Positions 41,401 through 63,739 are shown, counted from the stretch's first letter. The stretch: 64,000 nucleotides of DNA from Cyanobacteria bacterium P01_F01_bin.150 (GCA_039189765.1 JBCCYL010000025.1:11807-75806); one strand, 5' to 3'. Notes: a model not told the origin generated them from the sequence alone. A program made the numbers and translations.

Positions 41401-44400
41401 CTCAATAAAACCCCTCGCCCGTTTCCATCCCCTGTCGTTGTGGCGCTAATATCGTCGCCCTCCACTTGCAAAAGGTCGCCTGCTATTAAAATAATTTGTC
41501 CGCCTCTTTCTCCTGATGCCTCAATCGGTCCTAAGCGCAAATCTTGGGCGGCTATTAGATTAACCATGCCACCATCTCCGGTCCTTAAGCTAGAGCGAAG
41601 CAGTCCAGCTGTGGTGTCAATACTGCCGTCAGTACTGTTAAGTTTGATGATCCCCCCCAAACTTTCAATTCCCTGAGTGGTGATGTCGCCAATTGCATCA
41701 ATGCGTAACTGCCCCTGCACCTGGGATTCAAGTAAACTAATGCTACTGATATCGTTGATCTTAACTTGGTTGCCTCCCTCAATCATTAGTTGACTTAAGT
41801 CGTTAGCTTGGGACAACAAAATATCTTGACTGCCAGCATTTAAAGTGGTCATACCTATAATTTGAATTGGAGATGATTGGCTGAGCCCACCACCGGAGTT
41901 AATGGTCAGATCGCCGCCTACATTGAGGTCGCCAAGTTGAGTATTCTGTAAGGTGTTGGTCACTGCTACATCACTTTGTCCTACGGTGGATAAACTAATG
42001 GAGCCACTGAACTGATTGGGGTGCCTGAGTGTTATCGGGGCATCAGGAGCTAAACTATTAAATTGCGATGGGCCATTCGCCACAAGGGAGCCATTTTGGC
42101 GAATGGCACCGTTGGCCGTGAGAGACAATTGATCAGTTGCGGTAGAGGCCAACAGATCTGTAGCATTTCCCTCCCGAATGGACACCTGCCCGCTGTTAAA
42201 CGTAAGACTATCAAATGTATTGTTAGGACGATTTAAAGTAATCGTACCGTTTTCAGCCGTGAAACTCGCTCTGCCAGGAACTTGAATCGCTCCCGTTTGG
42301 GTAATGCTGGGAACGCTTGATTCAGCCACCACAGTAGGTGCGTCGGTGGTGAAACTGACAGTTCCATCGAAAGTATTATTAGCATTCAGGTCAATGGCAA
42401 GAGCAGTATAAAGCACTCCATCGAGAAATTCCAGACTCTCGGCAAGGCTAATAACAGTGAGATTTCCAGCGAAGTTTTCTGATGCTAGAGTAATTGGACC
42501 TACAGTTGTAATAACGACATCACCGTTGGGCAGATTAAGGCGTGGAATGATATTGCCGCTGGTGTCAAGGCCAGGATTTTCAGCAGGATTAAGAATGGTG
42601 GTTTCACCTGCAACTTGCAAGAGACTACCGGGTCGCTGGGAGATAGTACCGCTGGAATCAATGATCAAGTCGCCACCGATAAGAGAGGTATCCAGCACAG
42701 TCGCTCCCTGATTTCGCAATCTAACCGTGCCTGATTGAGGTAAATCTGTTGTGACATTAGTGTTACCAGAAATGCGAAGTGGGCCTGCTTGTTCAACTAA
42801 TCCACCTGAGGTTAAATTAAAGTTACCTATTGCGGTAGATCGTTGTAGCTGCGTATTATCTTGCTCCGCTAAGCTTATATCTCCACCGGAAAACGCAATG
42901 GACTCAAAAAGATTGTTGATATCATCAAGAACGATCGGACCACCATTCGCGTTAAATGTGGCTAGCCCATTAATAATTTGGGAGCCATTTTGAGTGATCC
43001 CTGGTGTGACTTCTACTACGTTGGCTCCATCTAAGTTGGTACGGAATCGCAATGTTCCGCCAAATTGGTTAGCCTGATTGAGAATGATAGCTGGATCAGG
43101 TTGGACTTTAATGAACTCGGCGACCCCAATGGGCAAGCTGTTTACAGTCAGATTGCCTGTAATCGTCTGAGAGGTTAGGATAATTGGCCCAACTTCGGTA
43201 ATAACGACATCCCCATTGGTTGACGTTTGACGAATAGATGGTAGCCCCTCAGAGTTCTCTAGCGGCTGGCTATCACCGCCGTTGACAGCAATATCGCCAG
43301 CCACTTGTAGGGGTTCACCTGGCGCTTGAGCAATAGGAGTGCTGGAGTTGAGACTAAAATTGCCACCAATAATAGAGTAACCGATGGTGGAAGGTTGGGT
43401 GTTGGTGACAATGACGCTCCCTGTATTAGCTTGATTGCTAGTAAACGTGGCATCTCTACTGATGGTTAAAGTACCATTACCAATGACTCGACCCGCAGAT
43501 TCCACCGTTAAGGTTTCGGCCTGGATGTTGTTGAGGGTGATATCTCTTTCTGTGCTGAGTAAAGCAACGTTGCCGCCAGTGATGGTACTGGTTGGGGTTT
43601 GGCTAATTTGACCACCCTGAATGGTTAGATTGGCGTTGCCTGTGCGGATGTTGTTATCAATTTCGACTGTGCTGCCAGCGTTGAGAGTTAGGGGATGGTT
43701 GGTGGTAGCGATCGCTCCCCTCGTGATAATATTCCCCCCCGCTGCCGGAGCTTGAATCACCGTTGGATGATTGAAGGTATCGGCAAGTACGGTAATTTCG
43801 CCGCTACCATTCTCTCGACCAATCACCACCTGAGTGAACGTGTCTGCAATTTGCGCTAGTTCACTGGAATCTAGATGGAGGCGATCGCCAATCGTTCCCC
43901 CGCCAATCGTAATATCTCTATCAGGATCAAGAGGTTGTAACTGAAGACGGTTGAATCCGCTGACTCCTTGTGAATCATCTCTTAGGGTGATGTCGTTGGC
44001 GGTGAGGGTAATATTTCCGGTTCCAGTAGTAGCGATCGCTCCCCCATCAATAATATGGAGTCCCACACTGTTATTGTTAGCACCAACCACTCTGCCTTCC
44101 AATGTAACGTTACCAGCACCCGCTGCTTGGATTAAGCCACCATCCCCGCTGCCAAACCAAATGCCAAAGTGATTATCACCAACCCCTCGTCCCGTTCCTC
44201 TCAACGTAATATCACCATTGGCAGTTGTGATGGCTGCGCCTTGTTCTCCGATGTAAATACCTTGATTTCCATCAGATTCGACCCCATTAGTGCCAGAGAT
44301 GCCGGAAATATCAATTGAACCTGTACCTATTGCCTCAATTCGACCACGCAGAATTGAGATGCCTTCATTCCCAAAACCGTTAACTGTACTTGTTTCCGAA

Positions 44401-46319
44401 GTGCCTGAGATTTGAATGTTTCCTGAGTTGTTTGCTTGAACTAAACCATCAACAATCGAAAAACCATGGCTATTATCACCGCTACTACCATTGGCAAGAC
44501 CATTGATCAAAATATTTCCACTATCTGCACGGACTGCTGAACTAGCATCCACTATTTGAATACCATGACTGCCAGAATTTCCAGCTCCACCTGTACCGTT
44601 CAAAAAAATATTACCGAATTGACTTGTTACTTCAACCGTATCTTGGAAAGAACTAGACTCTATTAATATTCCTATGCTGTTGCTACCAGTGCTTTCACTA
44701 TTGCCAACTATATTAACATCTCCATTTATACTTGATACTATCGCACCACCCGCAAGTGGTGTTCCATCAATATCAAATTTTTGACCAATTTGAATTCCTC
44801 GATTGTCATTACCTGTTCCACTACCACTACCTGTTAAATTGAGGTCTCCATCAATTGTTGTTACGCGGCCATTGCGTTCAATCAAGATACCAGTATTATT
44901 GTTTGTACCATTGCCACTTATGCCATCTAGGGTGATAGATCCTGAGTCTAATGTTTCAATCACACCTGGCGCATTTCTAAACTGTTCCCGAATGCGGATA
45001 CCATAATTCCCAAACCCCGTACCGTTACTTGTTCCTTGAATGATGATGTCTCCACGATCCGTGGTACGGATTGTACTCCCGTCCCGGATTTGCACACCCC
45101 AACCATCATTAACGCCACCACCAGTACCGATAATTTGAATATTTCCGTTTTCTGTACTGATGGTTGAAAACTCCACAATATCAACACCAATGGCAAGATC
45201 ACCAGATGTTCCACCACGACCATTTAAGGCAATACTTCCGTCACCTGTAGTAATCAGTTGACTACCATCAATTAAGCCAATGCCTCTATTATTAGTAGTA
45301 ACCTGCCCTACACCAAGTAGAGTAATATCGCCCCCACTTGCATTGATAGTACTGTTTCTAATATCGAAGCTTAAGCCAGGATTACCATAGCTAAATCCAG
45401 TAAAGTCTCCACCGTTTGTGTCAATATTTGCCCCGGAAATACCAATACTTCCTGCACCACTGTTATCACTGTCAGCTCTTAGTTCAATATTCAATTGGCC
45501 ACTATTTGATGTAATATCCTGATTAAGAAGAATATTATTAGCCGCCTCCATCCGCAGGGCAGCATTGCCTCCTGATTTTTTATCGACGGGGGCATTTTGA
45601 ATAATATTACCTGTCCCTGTTCCGTTATTATTGGTTGCCAACAAAACATCTAACCCAAAATCCAATGTTGGGTTAATGAAATTTACCATCAATGGATCAA
45701 TTGTGATATCTGCCGGATTGCTCACCCAAAGGCCATTTCCGGTACGAGAAGCACTGCCGTATTGCAAGCCTGTGGGCACATTAATCGTCAGCAAGGCGGA
45801 AGGCTCTGGAGCAATGGCACTAAATGTCTGATTATCTGAGAACAGAATGCGATCGGCGGTGCTGGCGACGAAGGTTCCTGCAATATCCAAACGGACATTA
45901 GGACCAAAGACAATGCCATTAGGATTAAGCAAAAACAGATCGGCAGGGCCATCTACCCCCAACGTTCCCAAAATATTGGAGGCATTTGCTCCAGTGACGC
46001 GGCTTAAAATTCGATCAATCCCGACTGGATTGGCAAAGTAGGCACTGTGTCCATCTTCTACGTTAAATTCTGAAAAACTGTGAAATAAGTTTGTGTTTCG
46101 TATGGCACCGCCTTCAATGCGATCGCTCAACGTATCTTGAGGGGTGACTTGCGATCGCTCTCCTACGTCCAAGGTTGCATCAGGGATAGGACGCGCACCA
46201 ACGGTAGTCGTAGTAACCTCAGTCGTCATCACTACTGCTATCAGAACAGCAATGCGAAAAAGAGGGGAAATGAGCAGCTTTGTGGGACTGTCCGCCGTAC
46301 TCCGATTCATGAGGCTCAA
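38433..46319 (-). CDS. Filamentous haemagglutinin-like (TpsA) beta-helical exoprotein
   Basis: TPS domain NLFHSFSEFNV...NPNGIVFG; G.AG.I.I repeats; C-terminal NDISASS..G..G.V...C...F..T.RGG.P..P...IIEA..W. Confidence 0.92.
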   Translation of the reverse strand: MSLMNRSTADSPTKLLISPLFRIAVLIAVVMTTEVTTTTVGARPIPDATLDVGERSQVTPQDTLSDRIEGGAIRNTNLFHSFSEFNVEDGHSAYFANPVGIDRILSRVTGANASNILGTLGVDGPADLFLLNPNGIVFGPNVRLDIAGTFVASTADRILFSDNQTFSAIAPEPSALLTINVPTGLQYGSASRTGNGLWVSNPADITIDPLMVNFINPTLDFGLDVLLATNNNGTGTGNIIQNAPVDKKSGGNAALRMEAANNILLNQDITSNSGQLNIELRADSDNSGAGSIGISGANIDTNGGDFTGFSYGNPGLSFDIRNSTINASGGDITLLGVGQVTTNNRGIGLIDGSQLITTGDGSIALNGRGGTSGDLAIGVDIVEFSTISTENGNIQIIGTGGGVNDGWGVQIRDGSTIRTTDRGDIIIQGTSNGTGFGNYGIRIREQFRNAPGVIETLDSGSITLDGISGNGTNNNTGILIERNGRVTTIDGDLNLTGSGSGTGNDNRGIQIGQKFDIDGTPLAGGAIVSSINGDVNIVGNSESTGSNSIGILIESSSFQDTVEVTSQFGNIFLNGTGGAGNSGSHGIQIVDASSAVRADSGNILINGLANGSSGDNSHGFSIVDGLVQANNSGNIQISGTSETSTVNGFGNEGISILRGRIEAIGTGSIDISGISGTNGVESDGNQGIYIGEQGAAITTANGDITLRGTGRGVGDNHFGIWFGSGDGGLIQAAGAGNVTLEGRVVGANNNSVGLHIIDGGAIATTGTGNITLTANDITLRDDSQGVSGFNRLQLQPLDPDRDITIGGGTIGDRLHLDSSELAQIADTFTQVVIGRENGSGEITVLADTFNHPTVIQAPAAGGNIITRGAIATTNHPLTLNAGSTVEIDNNIRTGNANLTIQGGQISQTPTSTITGGNVALLSTERDITLNNIQAETLTVESAGRVIGNGTLTISRDATFTSNQANTGSVIVTNTQPSTIGYSIIGGNFSLNSSTPIAQAPGEPLQVAGDIAVNGGDSQPLENSEGLPSIRQTSTNGDVVITEVGPIILTSQTITGNLTVNSLPIGVAEFIKVQPDPAIILNQANQFGGTLRFRTNLDGANVVEVTPGITQNGSQIINGLATFNANGGPIVLDDINNLFESIAFSGGDISLAEQDNTQLQRSTAIGNFNLTSGGLVEQAGPLRISGNTNVTTDLPQSGTVRLRNQGATVLDTSLIGGDLIIDSSGTISQRPGSLLQVAGETTILNPAENPGLDTSGNIIPRLNLPNGDVVITTVGPITLASENFAGNLTVISLAESLEFLDGVLYTALAIDLNANNTFDGTVSFTTDAPTVVAESSVPSITQTGAIQVPGRASFTAENGTITLNRPNNTFDSLTFNSGQVSIREGNATDLLASTATDQLSLTANGAIRQNGSLVANGPSQFNSLAPDAPITLRHPNQFSGSISLSTVGQSDVAVTNTLQNTQLGDLNVGGDLTINSGGGLSQSSPIQIIGMTTLNAGSQDILLSQANDLSQLMIEGGNQVKINDISSISLLESQVQGQLRIDAIGDITTQGIESLGGIIKLNSTDGSIDTTAGLLRSSLRTGDGGMVNLIAAQDLRLGPIEASGERGGQIILIAGDLLQVEGDDISATTTGDGNGRGVLLRADTIHLLDGGRVLSQTSGSGQAGNMIVEARQLLIHNSLVPGPELTPNDFEGDEFTADNLILDRFTEREFTGLGTNTNPGSTGDGGDIHITVTERLKIVGNDSTPFNADPADPASVLEVATVPTGILSSSAGEGQSGNIMMEVGELIMRDRVGMGAGPLLRDFSADNDDSIPITNGGSITIVADSVLFRNRAGIVTSPLGPGNAGDLTMTVAQTLTLARGGSIIADSPATTDGNAGDVTITADQINLRRGGRIGSSTASAGQGGDIFIRANGINIRGEAIASDNTDDIDRPLTPSGIFSSALEDSSDPAGNITLTVNTLNITNGGEINASTAGTGSAGDISIQEARDITLDEGTISSAVEATANLDPKLSQQGGDILIESDRLSLSENAKITSSTSGIGDAGTIRIREATRINLETSSEISTAVENGARGDGGQIILNDIGRLNIDDAQISASTAGRGPAGGIRIRGDRLFLNNNAQITSSTAGIGDAGTINITDATRIRLDTGSEISTAVESNAEGTAGDIRIRGNRLFLSENASITSSTAGIGDAGTIRIQDATRIDLDSDSEISTEVLQGATGDGGTIELRNIGNLDIQNRATISARSQDDNDAGDININATTVSLTDRASITAETVAGQGGDIDLQDLASLEVRDNSRIEATTQIGRAGTIDIVAQDSISVSNGSTLSVAAKIDNDTTSSSTSRILHRANGDNDFGIAGDLSIETNSLDVSDDSRISVESRQGQAGNINITASTIVLNDGDIEATTGRNPNDGTRSANVSLTLTGLDDSLRLQNGSLISADASLDADAESDANAGNITINAANGFIIADVFENSDIIATAGEGDGGNINLTAFDVFGIEERSGSRDELLDNTTNDISASSEFGTSGNVAVNDLGIDPVQAAADLPVDTAPPDLSQGCQPGIDGQGRFINTERGGIPSSPDDPIASDDAWEDIHPPGTSTEPTSIIEAETWHIKEDGQIVLHSESNPDAFHLTCQF

Positions 46320-47349: not shown

Positions 47350-50300
47350 ATGCGAATTATGGCTGATTTCAACTTTGATAAAGTACTAGACCAAGCTATT
47401 GAAGATGGAGGAAAAACTTATCTGGTTTATATGAATGGAATCAGGACAACAGAAGAGCAATATCAAACTAGAGACATTCAAGGTTTCAATAGTATTTGGA
47501 ACCTTTATCATAACCTAATCAACCCTTCAGGAAAACAAGATTTTCTTGGAGAAGGTAGTGATTCGATTTCTCGTGGTTCGATTGAGTTAGATACTCAATA
47601 TCGAAATACTACAGATAGTACAGGTAGCGACTGGGGTGATATCGGAATATTTGCTATTAATTTTTTATTCAACTACGCTCTTGATAAGTTCTCACTCTTT
47701 GAAGTCTTAGAACAGGTTAATAAAAGCAAGGATCTCAAGAAAAAAATAGATGGTTTGACAGAAAAGCTTAATAAGCTAGTCAATGACAATGCAGATCCGG
47801 CAGATATCAACAGAGTTCAAGATGAAATTAGCTTAGTTGCGAAAGATTTGGACTCACTTAAGGATATCGTTGATTTCTTCGATACAATAAAAGTGAGTTG
47901 GGAATTTATTTCGTCCTTAGTTAAAACTCCACCAGATCAGTGGCATACAAATGATGAATTTACAGATAAATCTTTTTTCTTTTTGAAAGAAGTGGCTAGC
48001 TTTATTCCAGGATTTGGTGAGATATCTTCAGTTATTGATGCTGCTATTGATGCAGCACCCGCTGACTTGAAAGAGGCTCTTAAGCAATATTGGTATAAAG
48101 AACCCCAATTCCAAGATATAAACACTTGGATTGAGCCAGCAGAAGAATGGCTAGCTAGTAATGATTCAAACTCTGTAATTTTAGTTGGTCATTCCCAAGG
48201 AAACTTCTTTATTGAAGATGGATTGATAAATATAAATCAAGATAAATCTAATGTTAGCGTACTTTCTTTAGCTTCGCCAACAAGCTATTTATTCGCAGAT
48301 GGAATTGATTTTTACAGGACTGAAAATACTCTGAATAACGATGTAGTTTACGGAAACGATCCAGTCACTAAACTTAGGTTTGATTCTGAGCCAAATGTTT
48401 GGGATAAAATCTACAATATGGTTTTACTAGTAGGCAATATATTTAGTTTAGGAGATCATGCGATTGAAAATTATTTCACAGATGACAACGCTAAGTCTTT
48501 CTTAACGTCAACCTTTTATGATTTGCATCCTGAAGGATACTACTTCCCTGTAGGAGGTAGTTTGAACATTGGTGAACAGTCTAATGATGATGACTGGATT
48601 GAAGGTAGTGGGACTCTTGAAGGTGAAGGCCGTAATGATGTTCTTAGAGGTCAAGATGACTCTGAAGATACCCTCATTGGAGGTGAAGGCTACGACATCC
48701 TTGATGGTAGGGGGGGGGAAGATACGGCTGACTATTCCAGTAGTCCAGACCGCGTGATCGTCAATGCTGCGCAATATGGTGGTTCAGATGTTTATCGTAT
48801 TGAAGATGGTTTTGGCACAATCGATACTGTTGGTGATGTCGAGACTATCGTGGGTTCTCCTGGTGATGATGAAATGTATGGTGGAAACTACACCGATCAC
48901 TTCATAGGTGAGGATGGAAAAGATGACCTTCGCGGCGGCGGCGGGGATGATCTGTTATCTGGTGGCAATGATAACGACACAATTCACGGTGATGATGGCA
49001 ATGATGAAGCCTGGGGTGATGACGGAAACGACACGATCCATGGTGGTACAGGCGAAGATACCTTGCATGGCGGTATCGGTGACGACACCATTTACGCCGA
49101 TGCAGACAACGACACCGTTTATGGAAATGAAGGCTTAGATACCATTCATGGTGGTATAGGCGAAGATACTCTGCATGGTGGCACTGAAGATGACACTATC
49201 TATGGTGATGAGGATAACGACACCATCTACGGTGATGAAGGCATAGACGCTATCTACGGTGGATCGGGTGCAGATATCATTGATGGCGGCACGGAGGACG
49301 ACTACATCGAAGGCGGTACTGAAGGCGATACCATCTATGGCGATGACGGTGCTGACACGATTTGGGGTCAAGCCGGAAGCGATATCATCTACGGTCAGAC
49401 AGGCTGGGATTGGATCAGTGGCGGTGATGGTAATGATGCCATTTACGGTGGTGATGGAGGTGACCAAATCTATGCTAATGCTGGCGATGACTATGTAGAA
49501 GGCGGCACCTACGGCGACTATATCGAAGGGGGTAGCGGCAACGACACCATCTTGGGTCAGTGGGGCAACGATCGCATCCGGGGTCAAGACGGCAACGATA
49601 CCATTAATGGCGGCACTGGCAAAGATGACATTCATGGTAATGCGGGTGCAGATAGCATTTATGGTGCCGAAGATAATGATCTGCTAATTGGCAACCAAGG
49701 CAACGACCAAATTGATGGCGGTCAAGATATCGACACCGTAGACTACCAACAATCCCCCAGCAGCGTTGTGGTGAATATCCTTGAAGGCCAGGGATTTGAA
49801 CACGATCGCCTCCAACGATTCAACAGCCACGTCGATGACACCAACCCCAGCGAATACTATACCGACCTCGAAATCGATTTTTCCCTTGCCGCTGGCAGGG
49901 CCATCGATGGTTACGGCACCATCGACAGCCTCCTCAATCTGGAAAATATCATCGGTAGCGTCTGGGATGACGTCCTCATCGGCAACCGCACTGAAAACCA
50001 AATTTTGGGTTTAGCGGGGAACGACCTGATCATCGGTCATCGCGGAAACGATACCCTCGATGGTGGCGACGGTATTGATACCGTCAGCTACCGCCGCGAT
50101 AGTGGGGGCGTTACTGTCAACTTAGCCACAGGCACCGCTACTGATGGTTGGGGCGACCAGGACACCCTCAGTAACTTTATCCATGTGGTCGGGTCACGCT
50201 TTGATGATGACCTGGCAGGCGATGCCCAGGATAATATTATTACTGCTGGCGATCGCAACGATATCGTAGATGGCGGTCTTGGTAACGACTTTCTCTACGG

Positions 50301-53300
50301 CGAATTCGGCAACGACATCCTCATTGGTGGTTTTGGTTTTGACCATCTCTACGGTAACCAGGGTCGTGATGTCATCTGGGGTGACTTGATTAACAACACC
50401 GACCAAGGCGACGTAGACATCATTCGCGGTGGCGATGGCGACGACGAAATCCATGCTGGTGGTGGTGATGACTGGGTCCGGGGTGACAGTGGCTCCGGTG
50501 ATGATGACATCTGGGGCGATGCGGGTAACGACCTACTCGAAGGTGGCGCAGGTAACGACACCATTCGGGGCGGCACAGGCAACGATGAGATCTATGGAAA
50601 TGACGACAACGATGTTCTAGAGGGTAATGAGGGTATTGACCAAATCTACGGTAACGACGGCGATGACGAAATTGATGGTGGATCTGGCTCTGATACCATC
50701 CATGGCAATGATGGTAACGACACCATCAGCGGCGGCACGGAAGATGATACCCTCTTTGGCGATGCAGGTAACGACTCTATTGCCGGAGACGATGGAGCTG
50801 ACTATATCGACGCTGACACAGGTGATGATATTGCCGATGGCGGCAACGGCAGCGACGAGATCTATGGTCGTACCGGAAACGATATTCTGGATGGTGGTGC
50901 CGATGCTGACTTTATCTACGGTGAAAGCGGCGACGACACCCTCCTAGGATCCGCTGGCGAAGACTACATTGATGGCGGCTTGGGCAACGATACCGCTGAT
51001 GGCGGCGACGATGTAGACTTGATTTACGGTCGCGTTGGTGATGACATCTTGGATGGCGGTGCTGGCGATGACCAGATTTATGGGGAATCCGGCCATGACA
51101 CCTTACTGGGGTCTGCTGGCGATGATTATCTAGATGCTGGAATTGGCAACGATACCGCTGATGGTGGTGAGGGCACTGACGAAATTTACGGTAGTGAAGG
51201 CGAAGATAACCTCGATGGCGGCGCAGGAGATGATTTCGTCTACGGTGAAGCAGGTGACGACAGGCTGTCTGGTTCCGACGGAGAAGATTATCTTAGCGGC
51301 GCAGAGGGCAATGACAACCTTGATGGTGGTGCTGACAATGATCTGCTGGATGCTGCCATTGGCGATGACAGTCTCTACGGTGGGGCTGGCAATGATACCC
51401 TCAATGCGGCTGAAGGAGACGATCTACTCTATGGTCAGGAGGGGAACGACTTACTCAACGCTGGTACAGGCAACGATTACCTAGATGGTGGTAAGGGTGA
51501 GGATATTCTTAATGCTGACAATGGGGATGACATTCTTTTCGGTGGTGATGGTGACGATTTCCTCAATGCCGGACTTGGGGATGACATTGCCAATGGTGGT
51601 GCAGGGGATGACGATATCCTCGGTGCAGAGGGCAATGATGAACTCTCTGGTGGTGACGGTAATGATTTCATAGACGCGGGTGTTGGTGATGATGTAGCAG
51701 TCGGTGGCGCTGGTAACGATGACCTCCTCGGTCGCACAGGTGATGATGAACTATCAGGGGAAGATGGTGAGGATCTGCTGGAAGGCCATGAAGGCGACGA
51801 CATCCTTGATGGCGGTGCTGGCAATGATATTCTCCGGGGCGGCACTGGCGACGACGTGCTTATGGGGGGCAAAGGGGACGATTCTCTGGACGGCGGTGAC
51901 GGCAATGATGTCCTTGATGGCGGTGCTGGGATTGATAGCGTTACCTACAAAGACTCTTCCGTTGGGGTTTTCATCAATGCCGATGATGAGAATAGTCATC
52001 AGGACCATGACCTGGACTGTAGCTGTGACGATTGTGATGTCACGGCTACAAACACCGAGCCAGAGTTTTATCTCGCTCCCGGTGAGGTTTATGACGAGTC
52101 AGGATCTAGCGATACCTTAACGAATATCGAAAATATTGAAGGATCCGATTACAACGACGTCATCATCGGTGGTAAGGAAGATAATCTGCTGGTAGGCGCA
52201 GGGGGCGATGACTTTTTGGAAGGGAATGGTGGTCGCGATACCCTAGATGGCGGCGAAGGCAATGATACAGTCAGCTACCAAGATGACCCCAGCGGGGTTC
52301 GTGTCAACCTGTTCGACAATCATGCCACTGATGGCTACGGTAAGGACGATCGCCTCCTATCCATTGAAAACGCCACTGGTTCTGAGCATCGAGACATTAT
52401 CAAAGGTGACGTTCAGGCCAATATTCTCCATGGTGCTGGTGGCAACGATGATATCTACGGTCAAGATGGCGATGACCAAATAATAGGCGACAAAGGTAAT
52501 GACAAACTCTACGGTGGTGATGGCAATGATAAATTGCTAGGTCAAGAAGACAACGATACCTTGTATGGCGATGATGGAGAGGATCATCTCTGTGGAGGAC
52601 AGGGGGATGACAAACTCTACGGTCACAAAGACAAAGACACCTTAGCAGGCGGAAAAGGCAATGACACCCTTGATGGAGGAGCACATAAGGATACTCTTAA
52701 CGGCGATGATGGAAATGATGAGTTATTTGGAGGTAAAGGCAACGATATCCTCTTTGGTGGAGCAGAAAACGATACTCTCAACGGCGGCAGCGGCGATGAT
52801 GACCTTGATGGCGGTAATGGCAATGATTTCTTAAACGGCCAAGATGGAGATGATTTCCTCAACGGTCAATCTGGCAACGACAGGCTTTATGGAGCTTACG
52901 GAGAAGACACCATTTACGGTGGCGCTGGAGACGATCTTATCTATGGTGAAGATGCCGACGATCGCCTCCTTGGAGGCGCTGGGGATGACACCCTATCGGG
53001 CGGATCTGGCAGCGATCGCCTTGCTGGTGATGCGGGGAACGACCACATTACCGGAAACACAGGTACTGACATTATAGAAGGCGGACAGGGCAACGATACC
53101 CTCAACGGTGGGGATGGTCAGGATAGTCTGACAGGCGACGCTGGAAATGATGAACTGCTTGGAGAAGCTGGCGCAGACGAACTGACGGGTGGCTCTGGAC
53201 ACGACACCTTAAAAGGCGGTTCTGAGAATGACATCCTTATCGGTAATAACGGTAATGATGTGCTAATGGGTGGCTCTGACTACGATACCCTTGATGGAGG

Positions 53301-53952
53301 CATGGGGGATGATACGTTAAATGGCGGCACTGGCGACGATATTCTGACGGGTGGCTCAGGTGCGGATGAACTTGTGGGCGATCGCGGCCGGGATGACTTA
53401 GATGGTGGGTCTGGAAACGACACCCTTTATGGAGGAGACGATGCTGATATTCTGCATGGACAATCTGGTCACGATACATTGGATGGAGGTAGTGAGGATG
53501 ACCAACTCTTTGGTGGCACTGGCGACGACACCCTGCTGGGTGGCAGTAGTGGGGAAGATTCGTTAAGTGGTGGTGATGGCAACGATTTCCTAGATGGTGG
53601 GAAGGACGACGACTTCCTGTTAGGCGATCGCGGCACCGATACTCTGTTGGGTGGTAATGGAGATGATCTGCTGAATGGCGGTTCAGGTAACGATATCCTC
53701 ACAGGTGGGAACGGCGACGATACCTTTGTCTTAGCTTCGGGCTTGGGCGTAGATACCATTACCGACTTCACCATTGGAGAAGACCTGATTGGCCTATCAG
53801 GGTTGACCTTTGGGGATTTGACCCTTACCCAAGGCCAAGGCGATCGCACTGACCATACTCTGATTCGCCTGATATCCACAGGCGAAACCCTAGCCATTCT
53901 AGAGAACACCCAGGCCATCGACCTGACGTCTAACGCCTTTAAAGTGGTCTAG
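47350..53952 (+). CDS. RTX (GGxGxD Ca-binding repeat) protein with N-terminal alpha/beta-hydrolase-like domain
   Basis: Dozens of GGxGxDxLx nonamers; C-terminal GVDTITDF..GED.I.L; N-terminal VILVGHSQG, NDPV, GDHAIENY. Confidence 0.9.
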   Translation: MRIMADFNFDKVLDQAIEDGGKTYLVYMNGIRTTEEQYQTRDIQGFNSIWNLYHNLINPSGKQDFLGEGSDSISRGSIELDTQYRNTTDSTGSDWGDIGIFAINFLFNYALDKFSLFEVLEQVNKSKDLKKKIDGLTEKLNKLVNDNADPADINRVQDEISLVAKDLDSLKDIVDFFDTIKVSWEFISSLVKTPPDQWHTNDEFTDKSFFFLKEVASFIPGFGEISSVIDAAIDAAPADLKEALKQYWYKEPQFQDINTWIEPAEEWLASNDSNSVILVGHSQGNFFIEDGLININQDKSNVSVLSLASPTSYLFADGIDFYRTENTLNNDVVYGNDPVTKLRFDSEPNVWDKIYNMVLLVGNIFSLGDHAIENYFTDDNAKSFLTSTFYDLHPEGYYFPVGGSLNIGEQSNDDDWIEGSGTLEGEGRNDVLRGQDDSEDTLIGGEGYDILDGRGGEDTADYSSSPDRVIVNAAQYGGSDVYRIEDGFGTIDTVGDVETIVGSPGDDEMYGGNYTDHFIGEDGKDDLRGGGGDDLLSGGNDNDTIHGDDGNDEAWGDDGNDTIHGGTGEDTLHGGIGDDTIYADADNDTVYGNEGLDTIHGGIGEDTLHGGTEDDTIYGDEDNDTIYGDEGIDAIYGGSGADIIDGGTEDDYIEGGTEGDTIYGDDGADTIWGQAGSDIIYGQTGWDWISGGDGNDAIYGGDGGDQIYANAGDDYVEGGTYGDYIEGGSGNDTILGQWGNDRIRGQDGNDTINGGTGKDDIHGNAGADSIYGAEDNDLLIGNQGNDQIDGGQDIDTVDYQQSPSSVVVNILEGQGFEHDRLQRFNSHVDDTNPSEYYTDLEIDFSLAAGRAIDGYGTIDSLLNLENIIGSVWDDVLIGNRTENQILGLAGNDLIIGHRGNDTLDGGDGIDTVSYRRDSGGVTVNLATGTATDGWGDQDTLSNFIHVVGSRFDDDLAGDAQDNIITAGDRNDIVDGGLGNDFLYGEFGNDILIGGFGFDHLYGNQGRDVIWGDLINNTDQGDVDIIRGGDGDDEIHAGGGDDWVRGDSGSGDDDIWGDAGNDLLEGGAGNDTIRGGTGNDEIYGNDDNDVLEGNEGIDQIYGNDGDDEIDGGSGSDTIHGNDGNDTISGGTEDDTLFGDAGNDSIAGDDGADYIDADTGDDIADGGNGSDEIYGRTGNDILDGGADADFIYGESGDDTLLGSAGEDYIDGGLGNDTADGGDDVDLIYGRVGDDILDGGAGDDQIYGESGHDTLLGSAGDDYLDAGIGNDTADGGEGTDEIYGSEGEDNLDGGAGDDFVYGEAGDDRLSGSDGEDYLSGAEGNDNLDGGADNDLLDAAIGDDSLYGGAGNDTLNAAEGDDLLYGQEGNDLLNAGTGNDYLDGGKGEDILNADNGDDILFGGDGDDFLNAGLGDDIANGGAGDDDILGAEGNDELSGGDGNDFIDAGVGDDVAVGGAGNDDLLGRTGDDELSGEDGEDLLEGHEGDDILDGGAGNDILRGGTGDDVLMGGKGDDSLDGGDGNDVLDGGAGIDSVTYKDSSVGVFINADDENSHQDHDLDCSCDDCDVTATNTEPEFYLAPGEVYDESGSSDTLTNIENIEGSDYNDVIIGGKEDNLLVGAGGDDFLEGNGGRDTLDGGEGNDTVSYQDDPSGVRVNLFDNHATDGYGKDDRLLSIENATGSEHRDIIKGDVQANILHGAGGNDDIYGQDGDDQIIGDKGNDKLYGGDGNDKLLGQEDNDTLYGDDGEDHLCGGQGDDKLYGHKDKDTLAGGKGNDTLDGGAHKDTLNGDDGNDELFGGKGNDILFGGAENDTLNGGSGDDDLDGGNGNDFLNGQDGDDFLNGQSGNDRLYGAYGEDTIYGGAGDDLIYGEDADDRLLGGAGDDTLSGGSGSDRLAGDAGNDHITGNTGTDIIEGGQGNDTLNGGDGQDSLTGDAGNDELLGEAGADELTGGSGHDTLKGGSENDILIGNNGNDVLMGGSDYDTLDGGMGDDTLNGGTGDDILTGGSGADELVGDRGRDDLDGGSGNDTLYGGDDADILHGQSGHDTLDGGSEDDQLFGGTGDDTLLGGSSGEDSLSGGDGNDFLDGGKDDDFLLGDRGTDTLLGGNGDDLLNGGSGNDILTGGNGDDTFVLASGLGVDTITDFTIGEDLIGLSGLTFGDLTLTQGQGDRTDHTLIRLISTGETLAILENTQAIDLTSNAFKVV

Positions 53953-58141: not shown

Positions 58142-58489
58142 TCATAATGGTAGGTATCGAACTGAATTTGCCAAGTCTTCTGGTTCGCCCACCTGGGTAA
58201 TCAGCTCTAAATCACGAATGCAGTTCCCGATAGATACCAGCATTTGATGACCATAAATAACACCGGGAAAATCAATTCTCTGCTGCTGCCGACGATTGGC
58301 TTCCACGAGGAAATCGTCATCCTGGGTGAATAATACTTGCTAAAGCGTAGTGGCGCGATCGAGCACCTCAGGATCAGAAATTCCGGCCAGTCCATCTTCT
58401 TGGAGCGTTAAACCATCAACATTCCGTAGTCGCAATCCGAGGGTGATGGCTCGGTGGACATGCTCATCCATATACAAAGCAAGACTCAT
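58142..58489 (-). pseudogene. DUF5615 PIN-like toxin with in-frame TAG at codon 50
   Basis: MSLALYMDEHV...LR.R.VD..T.QEDG....SD.EVL.RA..L*QVLFTQD.DF...GVIY...YLPL; TAG at 58340-58342; ATGA overlap with the DUF433 gene. Confidence 0.85.
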
Positions 58490-58803
58490 TTTAAGCGGCC
58501 CTGTTCCCGAAGTTTAGCGGCAAGGGGAAACGGTTCAGCCGATTGTTGTAGTTGCTTGACGGTGTCCAGTCGTTGTTCGATATCCGCATCAATATCCGCT
58601 TTGTAGTCCCAGTAGTAGGCCAAGGCGGAGTAAATTTGACTCATGGACAGGTAAGGGTGCTGAAAATGGATCTCTTCGGGACTCCATCCATATGCTTTAT
58701 GGGCGATGATGAGTTCCACTACTTTCATCGTGGTTCCCACAATTATGGGCACTCCAGCATCATTGACCTGGATATATTTATGTTCAGAGGTAGTGAAGGT
58801 CAT
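58486..58803 (-). CDS. DUF433 antitoxin
   Basis: G.PII.GT.MKV..L......G.SPEEI..Q.P.L...QI.SALAYY. Confidence 0.9.
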   Translation of the reverse strand: MTFTTSEHKYIQVNDAGVPIIVGTTMKVVELIIAHKAYGWSPEEIHFQHPYLSMSQIYSALAYYWDYKADIDADIEQRLDTVKQLQQSAEPFPLAAKLREQGRLK

Positions 58804-59118: not shown

Positions 59119-59250
59119 TTACTCTCTACCCTCATTCTTGTCCGAGCGATCTTTTTCTAAATCAGCCAGGAGCCGAGATGCGATCGCGTCCTGCTGCTCG
59201 TCTGAGAGCTTAGACACTTCTGCAATAGCCTTTTGAAGGAGTTCAGTCAT
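59119..59250 (-). pseudogene. Truncated small antitoxin-like protein
   Basis: MTELLQKAIAEVSKLSDEQQDAIASRLLADLE, then diverges near GATCGC and stops after 43 aa; no toxin gene follows. Confidence 0.55.
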
Positions 59251-59964: not shown

Positions 59965-62175
59965 TTATTCAACAACATTGATTGTAACTAGATGATCACC
60001 ACGAGAAACTGGATTGTCTAATTTAGGCACCCCACACTTTTCAAGCTTAAGGATCGTTTTGTTCTTTGTTCCAGGCGGTATTTGCAATGAGGTGGCTCCG
60101 TCAAGAGTTTTAACCTCAATATTACAGCCCAAATCTGCCTGATTTTTACTAATTTCAACGGATGATAGAATGTCTAACTCATTTCTCTTTAACTCTGAGT
60201 CTTCATTAACAGATAAACGAACGTAAAGATCGCCAGGGGGACCGTCTAACTTTCCTGCATCGCCTTCCCAAGGAATTCTAAGACTGGTGCCAGTGTCTAC
60301 ACCCGCAGGGATGGCTATCTTTAATTTTTTCGTTTCAGCCTTTCTTCCAATGCCATCGCAAACATCACATTTTTGCTCACGTATTTGTCCAGTTCCATCA
60401 CACGCCGAGCACTTGCAACGTTGGGTAAAACTGCCGAATGGTGTTCGCGTTAAACGTTGAACCTGACCAGATCCATTACAAGTCGAACAGCTACATAAAC
60501 TCGTACTAGGTTTAGCTACTGCACCGCCACACTTATAGCAGGTTGTTAAGTGTGTGACTTTAATGGTCTTGTCTCCACCAAATGCAGCCTCTTTGAGATC
60601 CAGCGATAGATCTATCGTCAAATCATCTCCACGTTTTGCCTTTCCTCGATTTAACCAGCTTAACCAGCTCTGTTTGTTTGTTTTGTCTTGAGCTAATTGT
60701 CGTCGATCAGCTTCTTGCGGCTCTTGCTGTCGTCGATCAGCTTCTCGCGGCTCTTGCTGTCGTCGATCAGCTTCTCGCTGCTCTTGCAACTGCTCTTGAT
60801 ATTTTGCTTCTCGTAATGGTTTCTCCAGAGCAGCAATATCATCCTCCTTTAACCCAAGCTGTTGCTGGTAGTTTCTAAGACCATCAATTACATACTGACT
60901 AAAAGGGTACTCTACATCAATTGCACGCATGAATTCCTGTTCATAGCGCTTCAAGTTCTCGGCATAGGCAGCATTTTTCTGTTCTATCTGTCGTTTTTCT
61001 GCTTCTTTTCGTTGGCGTTCTTCTTTGGCCCGCTGGCGTTCTAGTTGTTGTTTTGACTTGGCAATTTGCTCTTCTTGGGTTGCATTAACCTCGCTTTGAA
61101 TTTTAGCAACATCGCTATCTTGTAGACCTAAAACTTCTTGTTGCCACTCCCGCAGGTCTGCCAGCATCAATTCACCAGGTGGATACTGCTTTTTTACCTC
61201 AACCTCATATTCTTGCCGATAACGTTCTAAACTTTTGAGTCGCCGACGAGTTGGCTCTAAGACGCTTGCGACAATGGATTGCCTTTGTTCAACTGTAATG
61301 CTCCATTGCTGAGCTCGTTTAGCTAAAATTTCTTGTGAGCGATGGCTACGAATCTCGCCCCGCGAATGGTCAACATATTGCTCCACAAGCTTTCTAAACC
61401 GTGATTCAGCATTAATTTTGACTTTGCTCAAAATGATGTCATAACCTTCATCATTTGCAACAATGATGTCAGGCTTCATTTTGGGCTTGACTTCCTGTAC
61501 CTTTTGCCTGGCATAGTTGTGCACTTCTCGCACAGTTACGATGCCATCTTGATTTTTATCCGCCGTACCTTCCTCAATCCCTTCGATAAAATATTGTGTA
61601 TAAAGCGATAAGTCTGAACTCTCTTGCTGAAACGATACTTGAGTTGATGATGATGACGTTAGCACCACGCGACCTTCTTTACCGAGTTCTTGCTCTAGCT
61701 CAACTTTGACATTGCCTTTTCGCTGCCACCCCTCTGCAAACGCACCGCTATAGCAACAGTCGAGAATAATCACCTGGCGCTTCGCATAGATATCATCCGA
61801 TAAGTTTTGAATAAAGCTGGCAGGCACAGAGCGTGATCGATAAAGACGTTTAGACGTGTGTTTGGTCGTTAAATAGAGACGGTTACTATCATCAGTAATG
61901 CCATGCCCTGAAAAATAGAACAGCACTAAATCCTGCTTAGTCGAACGCATAAATAGCTCTTCAATCCTTTCACGCATCTCTGCCAAATCAGGATTGATCA
62001 ACGCTGTGATGTTAGCCGGATCAAAGCCACCCAGCTCAGGATTTTCCAACACACGCTTAACAGCCGCCACATCCTTTGGCGGAGCACTGAGAACCTCTAA
62101 ACCCTCACCATACTCACTAACCCCAATCAGCAACGCGAGCTTTTTAGAGTCCGGCACTATATTCTCCACCTGCAC
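59965..62175 (-). CDS. Caspase-like (peptidase C14) protein fused to DnaJ zinc-finger and C-terminal domains (no J domain)
   Basis: ALLIGVSEY; YFSGHG; ILDCCYSG; coiled coil; four CxxCxGxG-like motifs; IPAGVDTG..LR...EGDAG...GDLYV. The start may be GTG 62157. Confidence 0.9.
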   Translation of the reverse strand: MQVENIVPDSKKLALLIGVSEYGEGLEVLSAPPKDVAAVKRVLENPELGGFDPANITALINPDLAEMRERIEELFMRSTKQDLVLFYFSGHGITDDSNRLYLTTKHTSKRLYRSRSVPASFIQNLSDDIYAKRQVIILDCCYSGAFAEGWQRKGNVKVELEQELGKEGRVVLTSSSSTQVSFQQESSDLSLYTQYFIEGIEEGTADKNQDGIVTVREVHNYARQKVQEVKPKMKPDIIVANDEGYDIILSKVKINAESRFRKLVEQYVDHSRGEIRSHRSQEILAKRAQQWSITVEQRQSIVASVLEPTRRRLKSLERYRQEYEVEVKKQYPPGELMLADLREWQQEVLGLQDSDVAKIQSEVNATQEEQIAKSKQQLERQRAKEERQRKEAEKRQIEQKNAAYAENLKRYEQEFMRAIDVEYPFSQYVIDGLRNYQQQLGLKEDDIAALEKPLREAKYQEQLQEQREADRRQQEPREADRRQQEPQEADRRQLAQDKTNKQSWLSWLNRGKAKRGDDLTIDLSLDLKEAAFGGDKTIKVTHLTTCYKCGGAVAKPSTSLCSCSTCNGSGQVQRLTRTPFGSFTQRCKCSACDGTGQIREQKCDVCDGIGRKAETKKLKIAIPAGVDTGTSLRIPWEGDAGKLDGPPGDLYVRLSVNEDSELKRNELDILSSVEISKNQADLGCNIEVKTLDGATSLQIPPGTKNKTILKLEKCGVPKLDNPVSRGDHLVTINVVE
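60695..60790. repeat. 30-bp coding tandem repeat x3 (QE(P/Q)(R/Q)EADRRQ)
   Basis: Seen in both DNA and protein. Confidence 0.85.
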
Positions 62176-62563
62176 TCATTTTTTCGAGTAGAGAACTTGC
62201 CACTTCTTCAATTTGAGCCAATTCAGCTTGACTGCGGGCTTCTAACTCAACCTCCTGTTCTCCAACTTTTACTTTCACTTTCATGGGTTTATCAGAGAAG
62301 CGATCGCCCATCCAAACCGTAAATTCCTTTAAGTTGGACAGAGTGACATCGGCAGTCAAAAATCCTACCAAAGTAGCAAAGCCTTTCTCTCCAGATTCAG
62401 AAGATTCCTTCTCAGTGCGTTCTGCACGCTCTACTTCATCGAGATCGCGTAGCTCAGGCAACACCCGCTTTGCAAATTTCAGCCGTTCGTCATCTTCTAA
62501 GTCAGGATTGCTCAGTCCAAAGGTAATTTGAATGCTGGGAGGCGCAGTCATGGATCTAGTCAA
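62144..62563 (-). CDS. EACC1-like small protein coupled to the caspase gene
   Basis: Pattern L..ELR.LD...V.R......G.KG....G.L...V.......F..W.......K.K......E.E; overlaps the caspase start. Confidence 0.7.
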   Translation of the reverse strand: MTRSMTAPPSIQITFGLSNPDLEDDERLKFAKRVLPELRDLDEVERAERTEKESSESGEKGFATLVGFLTADVTLSNLKEFTVWMGDRFSDKPMKVKVKVGEQEVELEARSQAELAQIEEVASSLLEKMSAGGEYSAGL

Positions 62564-62692: not shown

Positions 62693-63739
62693 TTAGTTCT
62701 TGCGCTTATCCCCACTCTCCAATAATCGCCTCAACTCCGCTTTCAAAACCTCCACATCCGGCAAATAGAGCTGATACCGCGACACAAACAACTGATTCGA
62801 AATCGAGCCCATCGCATACTCCACCATAATTTCATCCCGATCCGTCGCTAGCACAATCCCAATCGGGTCATTGTCATCCTCCACATTTTCCTCAGCCTTA
62901 AAATAGTTGAGGTACATATTCATCTGGCCGATATCCTGATGACTGACCGATCGCGTCTTCAAATCAATCAGCACAAAACACTTCAGGATCCGATGATAAA
63001 ACACCAAATCCACATAAAAATGCGTGTTATTCAGCGTGATTCGGTACTGCTGCCCAATAAACGCAAACCCCTTCCCCAGCTCCAGCAAAAACTGCTCCAG
63101 CTTGGCAATAAGCTGATTCTCCAGCTCACTTTCCCGATAATTCTGCTCCGGCAACTTCAAAAACTCAAACACATAGGGATCCTTCACCACATCCCTTGCC
63201 TCAGTGGGCATCTGCCCCTGTTGCGACAAAGCCAAAATCTCTCCTTTATCCCTGCTTAGTGCCACCCGTTCAAACAGCGCCGAATTCTTCTGGCGTTTTA
63301 GCTCCCGTACGCTCCAGTTTTCCCGGATGCACTGCTGCGCATAAAACGAACGGGCCAAATCATCAGAAATGGCCAGCAGCTCTGTGTAATGAGACCAGCT
63401 CAATTTTCCAGACAGTGTCTGGAAAATTGGGTATCGAAGATAGAAAAGCCGCATATAGTGAGCATTGCTTTTACTAAAACCCTTGCCATGTTGCTGCTTC
63501 AAATCCTTGGAGAGTCGAGCTAGCAATCGCGAACCATATTCTGCTTTTTCCTGTCCCTGTTGCTCAAACTCCACGATATAGCGACCAATATTCCAATAGG
63601 TCTCCACCAACGTTCGATTAACCTGCTGCACCGCCGACTGTTGCCCATTCGCCAAGCAATCGCCGATACTCTTAATCAACTGTTGGTATTGCCCATTCGT
63701 TAGATCGCTCACCGAATCCCCACCCATTTCAAATGGCAT
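62693..63739 (-). CDS. YhcG/DUF1016 PDDEXK nuclease domain protein
   Basis: YWNIG..IVE.EQ....A.YG, LSWSHY, WSVREL.RQ, KDPY.FEFL, FLLELGKGF.F...Q, DLVFYHR.L, IDLK, GQMNMY. Confidence 0.95.
   Translation of the reverse strand: MPFEMGGDSVSDLTNGQYQQLIKSIGDCLANGQQSAVQQVNRTLVETYWNIGRYIVEFEQQGQEKAEYGSRLLARLSKDLKQQHGKGFSKSNAHYMRLFYLRYPIFQTLSGKLSWSHYTELLAISDDLARSFYAQQCIRENWSVRELKRQKNSALFERVALSRDKGEILALSQQGQMPTEARDVVKDPYVFEFLKLPEQNYRESELENQLIAKLEQFLLELGKGFAFIGQQYRITLNNTHFYVDLVFYHRILKCFVLIDLKTRSVSHQDIGQMNMYLNYFKAEENVEDDNDPIGIVLATDRDEIMVEYAMGSISNQLFVSRYQLYLPDVEVLKAELRRLLESGDKRKN

Follow-up and report, generated by a model that had tools for sequence, protein, structure and literature searches.

Why a bacterial caspase-like protease should carry the client-binding half of the chaperone DnaJ is the question raised by a locus of Cyanobacteria bacterium P01_F01_bin.150 (GCA_039189765.1), found in a stretch of 64,000 nucleotides (JBCCYL010000025.1:11807-75806; hereafter the window, meaning the whole stretch analysed). 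Here, a small gene of the EACC1 family stands 5' and an overlapping gene stands 3', whose product joins a caspase domain of the EACC1-associated type, a helical region, a charged linker, and the zinc finger and the two C-terminal domains (CTDI and CTDII) of a DnaJ protein without its J domain. The analysis directly supports this architecture and the membership of the parts in their families, the conservation of the pairing, the repeated and independent origin of the fusion and the retention of the DnaJ core residues. By analogy with a tested relative, we lean somewhat towards reading the pair as a two-gene suicide module of abortive infection or stress, in which the J-less DnaJ would be the sensor.

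Kaur, Burroughs, Iyer & Aravind (2020; PMC7159879) described EACC1 and caspase as the two partners of a conflict system, their "System 4". One such pair, EACC1-KrAvs12 of K. racemifer, has been tested: according to a preprint (Evans et al., bioRxiv 10.1101/2025.11.14.688446), the C-terminal Avs module senses a phage protein and the caspase cleaves EACC1; the C-terminal EACC1 fragment alone is toxic, the N-terminal fragment of 5.7 kDa is autoinhibitory, and liposomes are made permeable by cleaved EACC1. Lid-less DnaK-like fusions are reported there as well; the authors suggest them to be sensors of misfolded proteins and connect them with both defence and stress.

Both open reading frames (ORFs) were confirmed on the minus strand at the positions given by the first-pass annotation of this DNA, overlapping by 32 nucleotides (nt):

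62144..62551, minus strand: EACC1-family gene, 135 amino acids (aa) from ATG 62551, a predicted latent pore-forming effector
62144..62563, minus strand: longer form of the EACC1 ORF, 139 aa if TTG 62563 is the start
59965..62175, minus strand: gene of the caspase-helical-linker-DnaJ (zinc finger, CTDI, CTDII) fusion, 736 aa from GTG 62175

For the caspase gene, GTG 62157 appears to be a likelier start than GTG 62175 because of a GGAG 6 nt upstream and a better fit to the N-termini of homologs; the overlap with the EACC1 stop codon is 14 nt with this start. The first-pass annotation had seen two coupled ORFs, one EACC1-like and one caspase-DnaJ, which ORF calls, Pfam, NCBIfam and motifs confirmed. 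Its intact caspase dyad was located (H91 in SGHG, C141 in LDCC), its helical repeats and 10-aa tandem repeat were recovered by motif search, AlphaFold2 (AF2) and TRF, and Pfam, NCBIfam and motif search agree with it on a DnaJ zinc finger and C-terminal domains lacking J domain and HPD motif.

The DnaJ part closes the protein and consists of the following features:

60250..60621, minus strand: DnaJ CTDI, residues 519-545 and 611-642, with the zinc finger inserted (Pfam, motifs, Foldseek)
60346-60540, minus strand: DnaJ zinc finger, residues 546-610, with four CxxC motifs
59968..60249, minus strand: DnaJ CTDII, residues 643-736 (Pfam; predicted local distance difference test score, pLDDT, above 90), where the protein stops

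Pfam DnaJ_CXXCXGXG (PF00684) matches residues 546-609 (E 5e-11) and DnaJ_C (PF01556) residues 520-735 (E 3e-37, profile positions 2-150 of 152). At E<=0.1, no J-domain family of Pfam (PF00226 included) was found in the 736-aa fusion, and the motif HPD is absent from all 736 residues. The equivalog model TIGR02349 (DnaJ_bact) aligns at profile positions 60-333 only, with 231.5 bits versus a cut-off of 377.2. The CxxC motifs begin at residues 546, 563, 589 and 603, the first of them reading CYKCGGAV with the final Gly substituted. In the AF2 model, CTDI and CTDII are confident and the zinc finger is of low confidence; Foldseek matches the DnaJ part with DnaJ (6jzb, 1e-20) and with Ydj1 (1nlt, 1e-15). 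The part is 61% identical to the canonical DnaJ of the same genome (contig C6) over residues 513-734, and 60% identical to canonical cyanobacterial DnaJ over 228 columns. From 17 canonical cyanobacterial DnaJs, 144 near-invariant columns were defined, 109 of which are kept by the fusion (CTDI 32/42, zinc finger 35/45, CTDII 42/57); in the other fused members, CTDI is best kept (34-39 of 42 in nine of eleven proteins). The DnaJ part is under constraint.

What has been removed from DnaJ is the J domain, the G/F region and the C-terminal tail. Pfam found no J domain in any fused protein scanned, and at most two residues follow CTDII in 19 of the 22 caspase-fused proteins, versus 35-46 more in all 23 canonical DnaJs compared. 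As the J domain is lost, the module should be unable to drive DnaK. In E. coli DnaJ, the C-terminal tail is the dimerisation region, and its loss points to a sensor that is a monomer and would need bound clients in order to cluster. The first-pass annotation had also allowed that the DnaJ part dimerises to activate the protease; this option is weakened, the fused proteins being without the 35-46-residue tail of canonical DnaJs. Linke and colleagues reportedly found in 2003 that the inner zinc centre of DnaJ is needed for cooperation with DnaK and that the outer one supports DnaK-independent holding. A contribution of the Cys-rich domain to DnaK-independent holding activity is also mentioned, as a secondary statement, in PMC5818400.

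The remainder of the fusion protein is made up of the protease and the regions that tether it to DnaJ:

61423..62145, minus strand: caspase (Peptidase_C14, EACC1-associated type), residues 11-251 (Pfam, NCBIfam, AF2, Foldseek)
61903-61905, minus strand: catalytic H91, in the SGHG motif starting at residue 89
61753-61755, minus strand: catalytic C141, in the LDCC motif starting at residue 138
60754..61410, minus strand: all-helical middle region, residues 256-474 (AF2 secondary structure, motifs), without Pfam family
60628..60787, minus strand: disordered charged linker, about residues 464-516, pLDDT below 50 at 471-516, holding the tandem repeat
60698-60787, minus strand: tandem repeat of 30 nt in 3.0 copies (TRF), that is, the 10-aa EADRRQ.. 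at residues 468, 478 and 488

Pfam Peptidase_C14 matches residues 11-230 (E 5e-21), and with 169 bits the protein exceeds the cut-off (140) of the NCBIfam model NF047832, "caspase, EACC1-associated type". In the AF2 model of the fusion (mean pLDDT 82.7), the caspase occupies residues 12-251, mostly above 90, and Foldseek relates it to MALT1 (1e-10) and metacaspase 4 (3e-09). SGHG and LD[CAST]C are conserved across the aligned caspases, and the fusion has the H91/C141 dyad intact. D139 stands two residues before C141, and this conserved D139-x-C141 corresponds to D132-C133-C134 in the RR-docking pocket of a cyanobacterial orthocaspase model (PMC8283722). Orthocaspases are reported to cleave after basic residues (PMC6426788), and by analogy the fusion's caspase is probably specific for Arg/Lys. 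The caspase model has 22 matches in the whole genome. One further caspase of the genome (G000) scores above the EACC1-type cut-off, an FGE-sulfatase fusion on contig C48 (locus L002, 205-2178, minus strand); the 239-aa ORF upstream of this paralog is not EACC1-like (hhalign 0.5%).

The EACC1 gene was assigned mainly from its family context. A database search returned 55 homologs of the ORF at E<=1e-5, six of which carry a precomputed PF19953 match and one of which is named "Effector Associated Constant Component 1" by JGI. Homologs lie directly 5' of 13 other cyanobacterial EACC1-type caspase genes (tblastn), and contigs of equal length suggest that many of the 55 are probably paired with the closest caspase relatives. 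Furthermore, a 14-member cyanobacterial EACC1 alignment matched the family of ORFs upstream of the Streptomycetaceae fusions described below (hhalign probability 95.9%, E 5.7e-9). The Pfam EACC1 model searched over the whole genome gave 0 matches. Because homologs, position and hhalign supplement a marginal Pfam score, we regard the upstream ORF as a member of the EACC1 family and the 5' EACC1 gene of the system as present.

Two features of the EACC1 product bear on its possible activation:

62363..62413, minus strand: candidate cleavage loop of EACC1, residues 47-63, a low-confidence loop between the N- and C-terminal units
62384-62386, minus strand: conserved basic residue K56 of EACC1, inside the candidate cleavage loop

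In the AF2 model (mean pLDDT 74), residues 7-46 form a beta-alpha-beta unit and residues 64-127 a beta-alpha-beta-beta-alpha unit, with a loop between the two whose pLDDT is below 50 at residues 49-57. With the loop at this place, the N-terminal part would be about 50 residues long, comparable with the 5.7-kDa N-fragment of Evans et al., and the modelled two-part layout resembles their description of an autoinhibitory N-fragment and a toxic C-fragment. Foldseek found nothing in PDB for the EACC1 model at E<=0.001, weak matches being generic ferredoxin-like folds. The K56 column is basic (K or R) in 14/14 cyanobacterial and 10/10 Streptomycetaceae EACC1 homologs, and K56 is the sole conserved basic position in the exposed loop. 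As orthocaspases cut after basic residues and K56 is conserved in the loop, we propose it as the candidate P1 residue of the cleavage. A complex prediction with two copies of the caspase domain and EACC1 gave a score of 0.23, below the 0.32 mark, and is used in neither direction.

The slot behind the caspase is variable. A search of 5.8 billion proteins gave 755 matches, and 265 proteins were fetched in the course of the analysis. The best matches share the caspase and helical parts and end in GUN4, FGE-sulfatase, Hsp70, TPR, WD40 or other domains. The first-pass annotation had recognised an EACC1-caspase system with variable C-terminal domains, and NF047832, the evidence for the EACC1 family and the various C-terminal domains of the relatives all agree with this. 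The helical region, with two "YP...LGL" repeats (at residues 331 and 423) and, in the AF2 model, a 69-residue helix spanning 353-421, is matched by 242 of the 265 fetched proteins, a TIR-DnaJ protein (P0126) among them; it could be a stalk, a dimeriser or an adaptor. Each 10-aa copy of the linker repeat holds one Arg-Arg pair (three pairs in total), and these pairs could alternatively permit self-processing.

In a caspase-domain tree of 44 rows, the fusion's caspase, which is 84% identical to that of P0003, groups (98/88) with two GUN4-fused and two Hsp70-fused proteins (P0007, P0008). The DnaJ label needs seven changes on this tree, and the starred branches force at least four. The nearest relatives in the same taxonomic family (L089-L091) carry FGE-sulfatase. 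L088, closer than any of these, shares 67% identity over residues 4-485, a span extending across the charged linker; after this the two sequences part, the tail of L088 resembling the beginning of an FGE-sulfatase domain up to the end of its contig. Since the closest caspase relatives end in FGE-sulfatase, GUN4 or Hsp70, the DnaJ part is a cassette that recently replaced another sensor, with the linker as the swap point. A metagenome scan with another DnaJ-fused protein, P0124, gave four loci, none of the four with a DnaJ part; two close ones (L092, L093), 79-81% identical to P0124 over the N-terminal ~512-539 residues and with an EACC1 homolog upstream, are a further case of C-terminal cassette exchange among close relatives.

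The fusion itself is rare. Among 401 genomes sampled across the phylum (two candidates scored per genome), a full-length match occurs in the window's genome only, and the same holds for 31 relatives in which all candidates were scored. It was not found in three genomes of the same genus (85-97% complete) and 13 others of the same family, where canonical dnaJ and other caspases are present, and 0/82 matching plasmid records cover >=80% of the query. Yet the fusion is recurrent and hence not unique: the architecture search for caspase plus DnaJ parts recovered it in 12 of the 265 fetched proteins and at 13 loci of Streptomycetaceae. In 10 of the 11 Streptomycetaceae loci examined, an EACC1-like ORF lies just upstream, and the Streptomyces fusions are already named "caspase, EACC1-associated type" by NCBI. 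In the flanks of five Streptomycetaceae loci, no third gene recurs, and neither DnaK nor GrpE nor a J protein is encoded there.

A search with the DnaJ part alone retrieved additional caspase fusions and also other heads. A J-less DnaJ follows TIR and the same helical middle region in P0126 and an LRAT/NlpC-P60-type domain in P0127; in P0131, DnaJ_C is followed by TPRs, and P0057 combines caspase, a DnaJ_C-like domain and Hsp70 in one protein. An Actinacidiphila genome (G403; locus L087, 1430-4390, plus strand) encodes a 986-aa protein with a 725-residue N-terminal part without Pfam match, followed by a J-less zinc finger and DnaJ_C; in the tree described below, this DnaJ part groups with a Streptomyces DnaJ paralog. 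In another cyanobacterial genome (G308:C55:31023-31424, minus strand), a 584-aa frame matches only CTDII of the query (51%, residues 601-734) and may be a partial-DnaJ fusion like P0093.

The origin of the DnaJ part was addressed with a tree of 54 rows and 230 columns (LG+G4, ultrafast bootstrap and SH-aLRT); a quick mixture-model tree agrees with it on the groupings that follow. The 12 fused parts from Streptomycetaceae are grouped together (98/96) and share a larger clade, supported at 100/100, with one of the two DnaJ paralogs of Streptomyces. The fused parts from cyanobacteria all belong to the clade of cyanobacterial DnaJs (100/97): P0005, P0011 and the TIR fusion branch off well within the canonical sequences (100/99, as part of a 99/97 clade), eight more make up a clade of their own (99/94), and the window's DnaJ part stands outside the canonical clade (98/92), without a settled position at the base. 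The phylogeny against host dnaJ, which the first-pass annotation had proposed, thus places the fused part of each phylum with the DnaJ of its own phylum. A single origin was rejected: forcing the 22 caspase-fused parts together, a group chosen after the quick tree was inspected, costs 383 log-likelihood units (approximately unbiased (AU) test, p 2.4e-6). The groupings therefore imply at least three captures of host dnaJ, each trimmed alike, and the fusion arose independently in cyanobacteria and Streptomycetaceae.

How could such a module work? We infer the trigger, the mode of activation and the cleavage site of the DnaJ-fused system from the analogy with the K. racemifer system, where the roles of effector, switch and sensor fall to EACC1, the caspase and the C-terminal module, respectively. 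EACC1 would be a latent, autoinhibited pore-former, and the caspase-like protease would be tethered via the helical stalk and the flexible charged linker to a sensor corresponding to the client-binding half of the host's own class A DnaJ, from which the DnaK-contacting J domain and the G/F region are removed. In a healthy cell, the DnaK/DnaJ system would keep free clients scarce and the protease idle. A build-up of non-native or otherwise DnaJ-recognised proteins would be the trigger, caused, for example, by mass production of phage proteins, by phage takeover of the chaperones or by heat or other proteotoxic stress. Binding of such clients to the J-less DnaJ modules would then cluster several fusion molecules or relieve autoinhibition, the active caspase would cut the exposed loop of EACC1 (P1 candidate K56), and the freed C-terminal fragment would oligomerise in the membrane, so that the cell is killed or arrested. 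The sensor role that the first-pass annotation had given to the DnaJ part fits the tested EACC1 system, the 109 of 144 columns kept and the independent capture of the same module in two phyla; the data are, however, compatible alike with a decoy for a phage protein and with a general sensor of unfolded proteins.

A broader reading, which we find conceivable but put forward only tentatively, is that the DnaJ lacking J domain and tail serves bacterial immunity as a portable sensor of proteostasis, cut repeatedly by multicellular-type bacteria from their own DnaJ, wired to suicide effectors and activated by client-driven clustering of monomers. If this is true, the effector heads would comprise the caspase with its EACC1 pore, TIR domains and NlpC/P60-LRAT enzymes, DnaK would be used likewise, sometimes together with DnaJ, and overload or hijack of the chaperone network (by phage or severe stress) would be read directly as a death signal, a bacterial counterpart of apoptosis triggered by the unfolded-protein response.

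Other explanations have to be weighed, the most basic being that the assembly of this metagenome-derived genome, which consists of 350 contigs with 4.7% estimated contamination, put the caspase and DnaJ halves together by mistake at the 30-nt repeat. The first-pass annotation had made its claim dependent on support of the junction by reads. The only public run containing the stretch is a DNA run, which may be the assembly's source. The independent Logan contigs of this sole run stop at the repeat, ending at 60746 and restarting at 60749; between them there are 58- and 32-nt unitigs only, and no contig spans the repeat with 31 letters on each side. Such a break is expected, because a tandem repeat of about the k length breaks de Bruijn assembly, and depth is alike on both sides (38.5 and 42.5). 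The 20-mers of the repeat are found nowhere else in the genome, and therefore there is no second copy to cause a mis-join. Moreover, the frame is open for 736 codons, the DnaJ half is only 61% identical to canonical dnaJ and starts where fused homologs start, without a J domain, and other, independent data sets contain this architecture too, a complete Streptomyces chromosome among them. A chimera is thus very improbable. The copy number of the repeat in the linker is uncertain; any whole number of 30-nt units preserves the reading frame.

If the fusion is genuine, the DnaJ part could be a specific decoy or guard that mimics host DnaJ and catches a phage or plasmid factor recruiting or inhibiting DnaJ, which would activate the caspase. 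As a decoy predicts, in each phylum the host's own DnaJ served as the template of the module; the long branches of the window's copy and of the fused clades would fit adaptation to a counterpart, as would the stronger divergence of CTDII than of CTDI in most fused members. The tested EACC1 system answers one class of phage protein, and the accessory character of the gene, not found in the three same-genus and 13 same-family genomes, points in the same direction. No candidate phage factor is known for cyanobacteria, however, and the conservation of the client-binding CTDI above all other parts fits generic client recognition at least equally, so that we hold a dedicated decoy to be unlikely. 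An improbable alternative takes the DnaJ part as the effector: the caspase would cut its own Arg-rich linker, the freed J-less DnaJ would poison the DnaK system as a dominant-negative holdase, and EACC1 would be a membrane sensor or regulator. The three Arg-Arg pairs of the linker are plausible sites for a protease preferring basic residues, and C-terminal domains deployed as effectors by autoproteolysis were indeed proposed in the text of Kaur et al. 2020; the experiments described in the 2025 preprint, however, make EACC1 the toxic effector and the C-terminal module the sensor, and most domains found in the slot (GUN4, FGE-sulfatase, TPR, WD40, Hsp70) bind and are not toxins. Slightly less probable still is a non-lethal protease of protein quality control, to which the DnaJ part would recruit misfolded proteins for degradation by the caspase, with EACC1 as a minor regulator. 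Client-binding DnaJ domains fused to a protease are what this explanation expects, but EACC1 pairing is conserved across the family whatever the C-terminal domain, the rare and patchy distribution is typical of conflict systems and not of housekeeping proteostasis, and caspase-type enzymes generally make limited cuts and do not degrade their substrates.

The suicide module with a DnaJ sensor has observations against it as well. EACC1 membership by Pfam PF19953 is borderline (23.5-23.6 bits versus a cut-off of 23.6), and 0/10 Streptomycetaceae upstream ORFs match the Pfam EACC1 model at E<=0.01; their link to EACC1 comes from profile-profile similarity and gene position. EACC1 adjacency of DnaJ fusions was examined in the window and in Streptomycetaceae loci. 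The proposed K56 differs from the cleavage site of K. racemifer EACC1, which Evans et al. place at Asp49 from an AlphaFold model and fragment sizes (10.1101/2025.11.14.688446). The inner two CxxC motifs are lost in P0015, P0023, P0197, P0128 and the LRAT fusion P0127, and P0093 retains CTDII alone of the DnaJ part; not every lineage, therefore, needs client binding of the full DnaJ type. The DnaJ branch of the window's fusion is long (0.55 versus a median of 0.15), which could mean changed specificity instead of general client binding. Finally, no RNA run containing the stretch was found among public runs.

The surroundings of the pair contain several genes of other kinds. The next gene upstream (62693-63739, likewise on the minus strand), separated by 130 nt from the EACC1 ORF, codes for a YhcG/DUF1016 PDDEXK nuclease and matches the PADLOC candidate defence family PDC-S02 (E 1.6e-139). 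A DUF433 protein gene lies at 58486-58803 (minus strand, E 1e-9), and the YhcG/DUF1016 gene together with nearby Uma2 and DUF433 genes hints at a small defence or toxin-antitoxin neighbourhood. An antitoxin-like ORF of ~43 aa, spotted by eye at about 59120-59250 (minus strand), has the sequence MTELLQKAIAEV..., and the ~700 nt 3' of the fusion gene hold no notable ORF. Two giant genes complete the picture, one at 38433-46319 (minus strand) encoding 2628 aa with a TPS secretion domain and DUF5649 repeats, the other at 47350-53952 (plus strand) encoding 2200 aa, nearly all RTX calcium-binding repeats (48 matched stretches).

How new is the combination? The word "DnaJ" is absent from the main text of Evans et al. 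2025, to which this check was confined, and occurs once in the main text of Kaur 2020, for an unrelated system, but not in the text of two of its supplementary files. DnaJ-EACC1-caspase fusions are not mentioned in Kaur 2021, the word "chaperone" does not appear in the main text of the orthocaspase survey (PMC8283722), and a search for literature pairing orthocaspase, or cyanobacterial caspase, with DnaJ found nothing relevant. The kind of system is thus known and DnaK-like fusions are published; new is the DnaJ sensor, and no discussion of DnaJ fusions was found. Targets of most EACC1-caspase sensors being unknown, a DnaJ sensor would give a concrete trigger, namely non-native or DnaJ-recognised proteins. 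Taken together, the independent origins, the parallel trimming and the use behind TIR and LRAT-type heads speak for a general principle of design by which bacteria tie proteostasis surveillance to programmed cell death, and a natural J-less DnaJ would also serve the study of DnaK-independent client recognition.

Compared with known systems, the window's pair shares with described EACC1-caspase systems the 5' EACC1 gene, the overlapping gene with an N-terminal EACC1-type caspase and a variable C-terminus, and the occurrence in bacteria of filamentous or multicellular type; unlike in those, the variable slot is taken by a J-less DnaJ. The protease resembles the cyanobacterial orthocaspases described in PMC8283722 (MaOC1 among them) in its p20-type domain, His-Cys dyad, D-C-C, lack of a separate p10 and accessory C-terminal domains. 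That survey of 473 proteins in 132 strains lists WD40, AAA_16, FGE-sulfatase, GUN4 and others as accessory domains, where the window has DnaJ, and it does not appear to consider an EACC1 partner, which the window's caspase possesses. With class A DnaJ, the fusion shares the four-CxxC zinc finger, CTDI and CTDII, and its fold matches DnaJ and Ydj1 structures; unlike class A DnaJ, it has no J domain or HPD, G/F region or tail, scores below the equivalog cut-off and stands behind a protease. A further parallel is the EACC1-caspase-DnaK-like fusion of Evans et al. 2025, where a component of the Hsp70 system likewise forms the C-terminal module with a functional part trimmed. The window uses the client-binding domains of the co-chaperone and not Hsp70, so that what has been published for DnaK-like fusions now reaches the second arm of the Hsp70 system as well.

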